From the NCBI GenBank assembly GCA_963722385.1, contig CAVRKK010000002.1, positions 384,001 through 448,000 of the forward strand: a stretch of 64,000 nucleotides of DNA. Direction: 5' to 3'. Below the pieces are notes generated by a model. The model was not told the origin of the DNA. It saw only the letters and a program-made list of their open reading frames with translations, and ran no database searches. Below, piece after piece: positions 34,667 through 35,860 of the stretch. The stretch is from an uncultured bacterium (lineage in GTDB: Bacteria > Babelota > Babeliae > Babelales > Babelaceae). Each line of letters begins with the position of its first letter. The stretch's first letter is position 1. Both the position numbers and the translations under genes were made by a program.

Positions 34667-35860
34667 CTACCCTCTTCGAGCTAATTCATCAACCGCTTCT
34701 TGAATCTGACCTTGAAAGCCCTTGATCTGTTTGCCTAATTTATCAATTCGTTCTCTAATTATCTTTGTCCTGACTTCTTCTGAACATGCATTTTTTAAAA
34801 GTCCCGCGTTATCGCCTTCATAAGGATTCTTTTTATATGCTTCCAATTTTTCTTCATGCTCTTTCATGACTTTTTGAAAACTACGTATTGATCTTCCAAG
34901 TTCTAACTTAGACTGTTGGCTTAAATTTGTTTGCTTGGGAGGTTGCGTTGTATATTGGTTTCTTTTTCTTCTTGGGTCATTTTCAGGATCTTCACCACCT
35001 GCAGCGGTGCCAGCAAATGATTGCGAAGCATTTTCCTCGGCATACTCATATTCTTCGCCCTCTGACTCATCGGCCGTTGATTCGTCATTGTCAAATCCGG
35101 AATAAGTATTTTGAGATGATCCCGCAAAATTTTCATGATGGTATTCAGGCTTTTTATTGAATTGCTGGCCAAACCTGTCAGCATCAAACTCGGCATACGG
35201 TCCATTTTTTGCTTCTTCACCTGACATGAAATATCCAAAGCCCAGGCCGGCCAGACCAAGAATGCCTACACCGATTCCTATATTCCAAGAAAGAGTTCCG
35301 GTAGCCACGGAACCACCAAACAACCAGGCTACACGCACAACGACCGAAGGCGCTGGCATATAATTGTGCACCAGAATACTATGCTTGCCAACGAAAAAAT
35401 TATGCCAGTTCTCTATCTCAAGTGACATTAAATGGCGTCTACTATTAGAAAAAACCCAAATGCCATTACAACGCATGAGCCCATGCGTACTGCTCACTAA
35501 TATATCATCCCGAGATAAACTATGAGCCTCTACCCAGCGGTTACGGCTGGCAGAATAAAATTTTTGCTGGTAGCCACAGTGAATCATCTCAACGGTTTCT
35601 CGTGTTTTAAAGTCTTCTACAATAACAGCGACGGTGAGTGAAAGCTCAGTATCCATATGTCTCTTGATAACGCTGCTTCTACGAATGTCCCTAAAGTCAA
35701 AGCACATTATGGTATGGCTGTACCCCAGCTCCTCGATTGGTCGAGACCCCGCTATTGTTTGCACGAGTGTCTCACGAGGAAAGCCGTGATTTGCCAAAAG
35801 CGAAGAAAACAGTAACGTAAACGAGAAGACAACGTTAAGCTTTTTGAAAAGAGTACGCAT
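34667..35860 (-). CDS. Polymorphic-toxin-like protein: signal peptide + Hint + Gly-rich hydrophobic segment + acidic linker + basic helical C-terminal domain
   Basis: GFPRETLVQT..RPIEEL and LEIENWHNFFVG..ILVHN (Hint blocks); C-terminal SIRSFQKVMKEHEEKL..Y..NP...DN.GLLKNA..IIRERI. Confidence 0.8.
   Translation of the reverse strand: MRTLFKKLNVVFSFTLLFSSLLANHGFPRETLVQTIAGSRPIEELGYSHTIMCFDFRDIRRSSVIKRHMDTELSLTVAVIVEDFKTRETVEMIHCGYQQKFYSASRNRWVEAHSLSRDDILVSSTHGLMRCNGIWVFSNSRRHLMSLEIENWHNFFVGKHSILVHNYMPAPSVVVRVAWLFGGSVATGTLSWNIGIGVGILGLAGLGFGYFMSGEEAKNGPYAEFDADRFGQQFNKKPEYHHENFAGSSQNTYSGFDNDESTADESEGEEYEYAEENASQSFAGTAAGGEDPENDPRRKRNQYTTQPPKQTNLSQQSKLELGRSIRSFQKVMKEHEEKLEAYKKNPYEGDNAGLLKNACSEEVRTKIIRERIDKLGKQIKGFQGQIQEAVDELARRG

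Follow-up and report, generated by a model that had tools for sequence, protein, structure and literature searches.

A compact, probably secreted Hint toxin with its own predicted immunity gene in Babelota, apparently an undescribed and phylum-wide variant of polymorphic toxin systems

Sec signals and Hint peptidases are already on record in polymorphic toxins, among them short, unstalked forms of around 400 aa (PMC3482391, in its accessible portions), and in the available sections of PMC3113570 and PMC3482391 the Hint domain sits between a pre-toxin domain and the toxin. We analyzed a 64,000-nt stretch of Babelota DNA (the window; positions 384,001 to 448,000 of contig CAVRKK010000002.1, assembly GCA_963722385.1) that encodes a compact relative of these proteins. 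With PT-HINT/type A BIL toxins (2lwy, RHS-Hint, Streptomyces UmbC) it shares the Hint fold, a terminal His-Asn and the lack of a +1 nucleophile, and with PT-HINT polymorphic toxins at large variable tips, cognate immunity genes and common tip families. Unlike in those toxins, the Babelota Hint is the predicted mature N-terminus and has Gly at position 1 and Gln in block B, and from this N-terminal placement it follows that a cut at His-Asn would leave a hydrophobic segment on the toxin. In conventional carriers of the same tip, the tip directly abuts the Hint, whereas the Babelota order is inverted, with the Hint first and the membrane segment behind it.

By analogy, the closest working counterpart would be the ABP system, in which, according to the accessible text of PMC12582261, an amphipathic helix needed for entry stays covered by an N-terminal sheet until a co-secreted protease takes the sheet off. 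These Gram-positive ABP/S8-PTS toxins are likewise compact and Sec-secreted, and have an N-terminal domain whose removal exposes a membrane-active segment joined to a basic toxin. They differ in having a BetaH domain and in relying on an S8 protease that is secreted alongside as a protein of its own, while the Babelota cap is its own predicted protease; in addition, the predicted released fragment of the window toxin is acidic overall and its producer is a diderm intracellular parasite. Membership of the ABP/S8-PTS group was rejected, as there is no S8 match among the window proteins scanned and the N-terminal domain is a Hint.

Neisseria MafB, as described in the accessible parts of PMC4524018 and PMC4436062, also has a signal peptide, an optional type A Hint, a variable tip of 80-100 aa, immunity genes and a lineage-restricted distribution, but in MafB a DUF1020 domain of 260-320 aa precedes the Hint and MafA serves as a partner; neither feature was observed here. 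Assignment to MafB was set aside: DUF1020 gives no match at E <= 1 and there is no room for it before the Hint. Finally, engineered C-terminal-cleaving intein tags (PMC7765530, accessible sections) resemble the predicted behavior of the Babelota domain, with N-terminal chemistry switched off and one Asn-cyclization cut, but the Babelota version is natural, phylum-wide and followed by 15 different +1 residues.

The toxin-immunity locus and its genome

The toxin ORF (34667..35860, minus strand) encodes 397 aa. It opens with a probable Sec signal peptide (35792..35860, minus; residues 1 to ~23) that has a basic n-region and a hydrophobic h-region, as judged by hydropathy (11-aa KD 2.11). The A-type BIL/PT-HINT-like Hint domain (35363..35785, minus; Gly26-Asn166) begins with GFPRET at residue 26, carries CGYQQKF at 95 and ends in VHNY at 164 (H165, N166, Y167), and was identified by profile, model and structure match. 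It is followed by a Gly-rich hydrophobic segment (35219..35362, minus; residues 167-214, 11 of them Gly) with a KD peak of 1.81 in the span that starts at residue 194, by an acidic linker (34970..35218, minus; residues 215-297, net charge -14 over residues 215-287) ending in GGEDPENDPRRKR at 288, and by the putative toxin tip (34667..34969, minus; residues 298-397, net charge +8), delineated by homologs and by a model in which two long helices form a basic hairpin. An artifact of frame or assembly was rejected, as the ORF is intact and contigs from public DNA runs match it with few differences, covering it in parts with no single piece across the whole ORF.

A preliminary description, made from the letters alone, had named these elements in this order, down to the Gly at the usual Cys1 position, the block B without TxxH and the VHN followed by Tyr, and had seen no RHS or T6SS carrier. 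Each of these points held: the Hint call is beyond chance by profile and structure, Gln99 occupies the block-B His position, and RHS-repeat and VgrG-type families gave no match in the genome (1.6 Mb in two contigs, 93% complete), with positive controls. What that description lacked is the immunity-type gene (34024..34665, minus), which starts 1 nt past the toxin stop codon and encodes an acidic protein of 213 aa built as a tandem duplication of a ~100-aa unit; position, homologs and a predicted complex identify it as cognate. With a probability of roughly two in three, we interpret the locus as a compact Babelota polymorphic toxin-immunity pair that is exported by Sec, with the Hint as a self-removing pro-domain, and that is directed at bacterial targets.

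The genome carries six related family copies, the window gene included. An intact copy at C2:1088616 has the same tip and is followed by three immunity copies, while the copy at C2:1092281 is frameshifted and has another tip and another downstream gene; the two are 91% identical in DNA over 755 bp and divergent beyond. The copy at C2:473795, again with the same tip, bears a frameshift and a stop, and that at C1:68278 is apparently frameshifted. At C2:480349-480834, a 573-bp deletion of the Hint and hydrophobic segment has joined the signal peptide in frame to the linker, and the tip is cut short. This deletion also occurs in two public DNA runs, and contigs from runs of one study show the deletion as well as the frameshift, so that both are probably real.

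The group formed by the toxin, the immunity gene and the gene upstream is flanked by a DDE transposase (32604-33644, plus) and, on its other side, by short ORFs (37902-38232) that resemble a broken IS5-type element. The upstream gene (35992-37758, minus) encodes 588 aa with no Pfam or NCBIfam match and has a 64% identical paralog at C1:276255-278033, far from any Hint gene; it was set aside as a part of the system. Elsewhere in the window, 18265-32433 encodes secreted-looking repeat proteins (two DUF5122 proteins, two lactonase-like beta-propellers and ankyrin proteins), with further beta-propeller paralogs elsewhere in the genome, and there are genes for a Schlafen/AlbA_2-HATPase protein (3749-5104, plus), a MutS-like ATPase (38599-40266, plus), a stand-alone LigD primase-polymerase domain (40534-41439, minus) and a Fic protein (63117-63731, plus).

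Tips, immunity proteins and the likely target

Across the 261 genomes of the phylum, all of one order, Pfam PT-HINT finds matches in 94, above the gathering cut-off in 72, and a family profile gives 307 matches in 112. The family counts given here were taken from the best-scoring part of those 307 matches, which yielded 153 unique Hint ORFs and, with 10 incomplete ones left out, 143; they describe the family and carry no statistical test, since kin are not independent. Signal peptide, Hint and hydrophobic segment are conserved, the tips are interchangeable and the downstream gene is matched to the tip, so that the same N-terminus with different tips, anticipated by the preliminary description, is found both within the genome and across the phylum. 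The 126 complete tips fall into 31 clusters and 111 of them have a closely coupled downstream ORF; of 725 pairs with the same tip, 604 have homologous downstream ORFs, as do 6 of 5380 pairs with different tips. Hints that are 99% and 94% identical bear different tips, and on a tree of the Hints of 100 members from the nine largest tip classes 49 tip changes are counted, where at least 8 are required and shuffling gives 64 on average (57-69).

Named toxin families account for 38 of 125 tails, 35 of them above cut-off (Ntox37 16, Ntox21 12, colicin E3-type Cytotoxic 6, Ntox35 2, Ntox33 1, Ntox17 1), and 87 of the 125 match none. Several large tip clusters (28, 19, 7 and 7 members) have no or few Pfam matches and are candidate unnamed toxins; the 19-member cluster shows a conserved His-Gly motif, and the second tip of the window genome appears to belong to it. 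No conserved partner gene was found, with at most 4 of 140 loci sharing an upstream family in flanks of 0.6-1.5 kb, and no receptor-binding part was found. Word-based searches outside Babelota returned few matches; pattern scans of named genomes gave one locus apiece. One Gly1 member is labeled as a protein of an archaeal MAG, on a 3.6-kb contig, and another, labeled Saccharimonadales, is apparently identical in sequence to a member from Babelota genome G069. NCBI labels members automatically as polymorphic toxin-type HINT proteins, and four of the features by which Zhang et al. (2012) recognize polymorphic toxins are present: a trafficking region (by hydropathy), exchangeable tips, immunity genes with orphans, and a tip shared with other carriers. 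A fifth, toxicity to competing cells that immunity neutralizes, is predicted.

The tip of the window toxin is shared in this way and bears out its earlier description as a toxin domain, since by homology it is a polymorphic-toxin C-terminal domain found also on RHS, CdiA-type and T7SS toxins. Its homologs form 1089 clusters at E <= 0.001; of the best 150 matches, 149 have it no more than 15 residues from the C-terminus, and the 74 of these 150 that were scanned include carriers with RHS, DUF637, PT-TG, T7SS signal, WXG100, DUF4280 and S8 peptidase domains, some of them from Microcoleus and Balneolaceae. Similar Gly-Gly/Pro-Glu-Asp-Pro linkers were seen by eye ahead of the tips in homologs. In Babelota the tip is present in 13 of 261 genomes. 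Its model, a helical hairpin with a long loop, reaches pLDDT 88, and a His, Lys, Pro, Asp, Leu and Arg are kept in 148-150 of the best 150 matches; the conserved residues include His335, Lys338, Asp350, Asn351, Arg364 and Arg371. Searches of Pfam, NCBIfam and PDB sequences yielded nothing beyond coiled-coil noise (TatA and prefoldin, for example) and no Pfam family; fold searches led to generic hairpins (lowest E 0.76; highest Z 9.7, with rmsd 4.0 over 94 aligned residues), and Atlas matches were unnamed clusters, all under 0.9. Four motifs of the tip are absent from the supplements of PMC13483458, and the tip may stand under a number in those of PMC3482391 or 10.1101/2021.10.19.465003. The invariant His/Lys/Asp/Arg surface and the basic charge suggest a tip directed at nucleic acids or ribosomes, which is also the type to which most named tips of the family belong.

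Carriers of this tip with a conventional Hint (P0029, P0086 and P0091) have Cys1 or Ser1 and tails of 78-99 aa, and P0029 and P0091 also keep the block-B His. The same tip ends a giant protein of 3496 aa with ankyrin and SecA-DEAD-like regions (P0129), a layout suggestive of endosymbiont effectors, and a protein of 754 aa (P0156) lacks a tip and ends in a tandem pair of Cys1 Hint domains. At six further Babelota loci (L040, L041, L042, L045, L050 and L053), the tip and its immunity gene occur with long carriers of up to ~1000 aa for which the retrieved DNA shows no Hint; these may form another delivery class that has no name yet.

Homologs of the immunity protein, which itself has no Pfam match, follow homologs of the tip. 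The two proteins are predicted to form a complex with a score of 0.92, against 0.00 for the best of three controls; the contacts agree to at least 73% and the partner pLDDT is 80 or more. In a calibration that holds roughly for alignments of the present kind, this mark was reached by 116 of 157 solved pairs and by 2 of 215 mismatched ones. The predicted interface covers the conserved tip residues Lys338, Asp350, Asn351 and Arg371, and the model thus supports binding of the tip by its immunity protein. Of the 261 genomes, 17 have members of the immunity family, 13 of them together with the tip (partly by construction) and 4 without it, and extra and orphan copies exist. On a Cronobacter plasmid outside the profile set, too, a homolog comes after a tip fragment (E 1.2e-6). 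Tandem arrays of immunity units, some of them broken, were observed at G000:C2:1089854-1091966 and G076:C6:24628-27716 and have the appearance of polyimmunity loci.

A downstream immunity gene points to bacterial rather than host targets. Babelota (Dependentiae) are intracellular parasites of protists (PMC4776705 and PMC6561590, accessible parts), and their obligate intracellular life could favor the alternative that the same processing releases a fragment that strikes the protist, for example the bacterial-type translation of its mitochondria, with immunity guarding only against self-poisoning. Chromulinavorax reorganizes the mitochondrion of its host and 44% of its proteins carry signal sequences (available text of PMC6561590), and tips of rRNase or tRNase type could act on organelles. 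We nevertheless regard a host-directed effector as unlikely, given that exchange of tips together with matched immunity, and orphan immunity genes in the 4 of 17 genomes that lack the tip, would pay only if foreign toxins enter a bacterium, and that the named tip families are common to interbacterial systems.

Hint chemistry and the hydrophobic segment

The window Hint matches Pfam PT-HINT with E 5e-4 and 20.8 bits, below the PF07591 gathering cut-off of 27.7. A profile built from 30 family members matches the Clostridium thermocellum BIL 2lwy at E 2.7e-29, and also matches Tetrahymena BIL2 and a chain of an umbrella toxin. In the AlphaFold model of the toxin, 128 residues reach pLDDT >= 90, and its best structural matches are BILs (E 1.4e-10 to 2.2e-9), among them 2lwy at E 2.2e-9 and rmsd 2.1 A. 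Type C BILs are associated with predatory bacteria.

The residues at the key positions of the window Hint are Gly26 (position 1), Gln99 (block B), Ser146 (F4), His153 (block F), His165-Asn166 and, at +1, Tyr167; the thioester-capable N-terminal nucleophile and the block-B His that are canonical in type A BIL/PT-HINT domains are thus absent. The 143 complete Hints, which share 17-37% identity with the window protein, repeat this pattern: position 1 is Gly in 136, Ala in 6, Ser in 1 and Cys in none, and the block-B position is Gln in 125 and His in 10, while the block-F His is kept in 129 and the terminal His-Asn in all 143. For the best-scoring matches, from which these counts come, an origin of the Gly1 in a biased profile was rejected: the initial 30 loci were found with the Pfam model, which aligns only from beyond position 1, and Hints with Cys1 or Ser1 score well with the family profile. 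The +1 residue, mostly Phe, Met, Ile, Val or Ala, is of 15 kinds, with Ser or Thr in 8 and Cys in none, leaving 135 without Ser, Thr or Cys. With its Tyr167 the window Hint is no class 2 intein, which lacks an N-terminal nucleophile but needs Cys, Ser or Thr at +1; a class 3 intein, which needs a Trp-Cys-Thr triad, is ruled out by Ser146 at F4 and by the lack of the Trp in the 4 of 143 Hints with F4 Cys.

Asn cyclization has been assigned to His F13, His G6 and Asn G7 (PMC4031507, accessible sections). By those residue roles, the family has conserved the residues of Asn cyclization and lost those of the N-terminal acyl shift, and, as far as sequence can tell, C-terminal cleavage alone looks possible. 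The cleavage-only character proposed for the single protein in the preliminary description therefore appears as a family-wide signature. That the Hint is instead catalytically dead, and serves folding, secretion or receptor binding while another protease acts or no processing occurs, would fit the loss of Cys1 and the block-B His, the retention of the F4 Asp in only 22 of 143 Hints, and the frequent coupling of Asn cyclization to the earlier splicing steps (PMC4031507, same sections); we consider this improbable, since His F13, His G6 and Asn G7 are kept in 129, 143 and 143 of the 143 and type A BILs yield mainly cleavage products (PMC4031507, PMC7664689, in the portions available).

Immediately before the Hint, 128 of 143 members have a hydrophobic leader (as judged by hydropathy), and the open frame ahead of the Hint is at most 70 aa in 134. 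Of the 143, 100 have a small residue at one of the last two places ahead of the Hint, where ~51 would be expected, an excess that fits a cut by signal peptidase right at the Hint; in the window toxin the small residue is Ala23, three places before, with none at the first or second.

On the other side of the Hint, within 75 aa past His-Asn, a hydrophobic block reaches KD >= 1.2 in 140 of 143 members. A glycine-zipper pattern occurs in 89 of 137, a slight excess over a shuffled mean of 72 and maximum of 86. The predicted released fragment of the window toxin has a pI of 5.1, the family median being 8.8. The AlphaFold model falls below pLDDT 50 after residue ~172, and in this low-confidence region the hydrophobic segment does not pack against the Hint, so that shielding of the segment by the Hint is unsupported. 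Against a cap role of the Hint stand this result, the weak glycine-zipper signal, the acidic fragment of the window toxin, the failure to find a conserved partner gene and the bias to positive charge behind the block, which would equally suit an anchor. In nine members (L011, L012, L020, L129, L137, L146 (two), L152 and L155), only a Gly/Ala-rich hydrophobic peptide of 59-111 aa follows His-Asn, with no enzyme tip, an arrangement that fits a leader role of the Hint. These tip-less members presumably resemble bacteriocins with the Hint as leader; several end in TGPV or LP, and three have a downstream ORF of 76-84 aa.

A signal peptide with a single hydrophobic block behind it is also how type I membrane proteins are built, net positive charge after the block is commoner than net negative (66 against 37 of 131) and no dedicated exporter is linked, but a cell-autonomous addiction or abortive-infection toxin-antitoxin, in which the block is a stop-transfer anchor with the Hint periplasmic and the tip in the cytoplasm of the producer, is the least probable reading, as the hydrophobicity is moderate (KD >= 1.6 in 113 of 143) and the invariant cleavage site, the tip-less members and the immunity arrays would be left without a reason.

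A proposed route and its meaning

For a secreted toxin-immunity pair aimed at bacteria, the following sequence of events can be proposed. Sec would export the toxin and signal peptidase would cut 0-3 residues before the Hint; with the N-terminal cut supplied in this way, the chemistry of Cys1 and the block-B His would have become redundant and been lost. The block-F His, the penultimate His and the terminal Asn would then make one cut, at Asn166/Tyr167, by intein chemistry, so that the Hint acts as a self-removing pro-domain. The freed fragment, starting with the Gly-rich hydrophobic segment, would insert into the membrane of a target bacterium, and the inserted segment would bring the tip into the target cytoplasm, while in the producer the immunity protein is predicted to bind the conserved face of the tip and protect the cell. 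The targets are most likely other bacteria, probably relatives in the same protist host or vacuole. Candidate routes of exit from the producer are type II secretion, vesicles or lysis; the genome encodes two secretins, and a TpsB/ShlB search of it (93% complete) gave no match, with control genomes equally silent. Low pH favors C-terminal cleavage in inteins (accessible sections of PMC4031507), and a low-pH trigger, speculative as it is, would suit the phagosome.

A literature search that reached few subscription papers found nothing on the family, on a Gly1/Gln Hint or on Babelota toxin-immunity pairs. The accessible text of the Babelota paper PMC4776705 makes no mention of toxin, Hint, intein or immunity, and that of PMC6561590 contains no toxin, intein or immunity and uses "hint" as an ordinary word only. 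Of the undescribed compact class suggested in the preliminary description, the first half apparently stands, no paper on the family having been found; the second does not, since Sec-exported, unstalked Hint toxins are known (PMC3482391, accessible portions) and NCBI applies its automatic labels, which makes the family a variant and not a new category. The family is real, spans the phylum and forms an apparently undescribed variant of polymorphic toxin systems.

A fuller picture is tempting, though we would give it somewhat less than even odds. The Hint might be a trigger-gated, self-removing leader, a one-gene and protease-free equivalent of ABP, that arms enzyme toxins and bacteriocin-like peptides with no carrier or partner and serves as the main interbacterial weapon in shared protists; it might also be a natural, traceless C-terminal cutter that tolerates many +1 residues, and the hairpin tip might represent an uncharacterized activity spread over more than 1000 clusters. 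The family itself shows the Hint in an inverted role, as a leader and not in release from a pre-toxin, apparently reduced by evolution to one half-reaction.

The 40-kDa protein offers an easy test of the long-assumed C-terminal release by toxin Hints, and the ~140 natural, putatively C-cleaving Hints are candidates for purification tags that remove themselves. Biochemical work could also start from the tip and its immunity protein, which belong to widespread, unnamed families and whose complex is predicted with confidence. If the proposed reading is true, these obligate and poorly known parasites of protists would possess a previously unreported, phylum-wide competition system, and minimal intracellular bacteria would be seen to fight their relatives.
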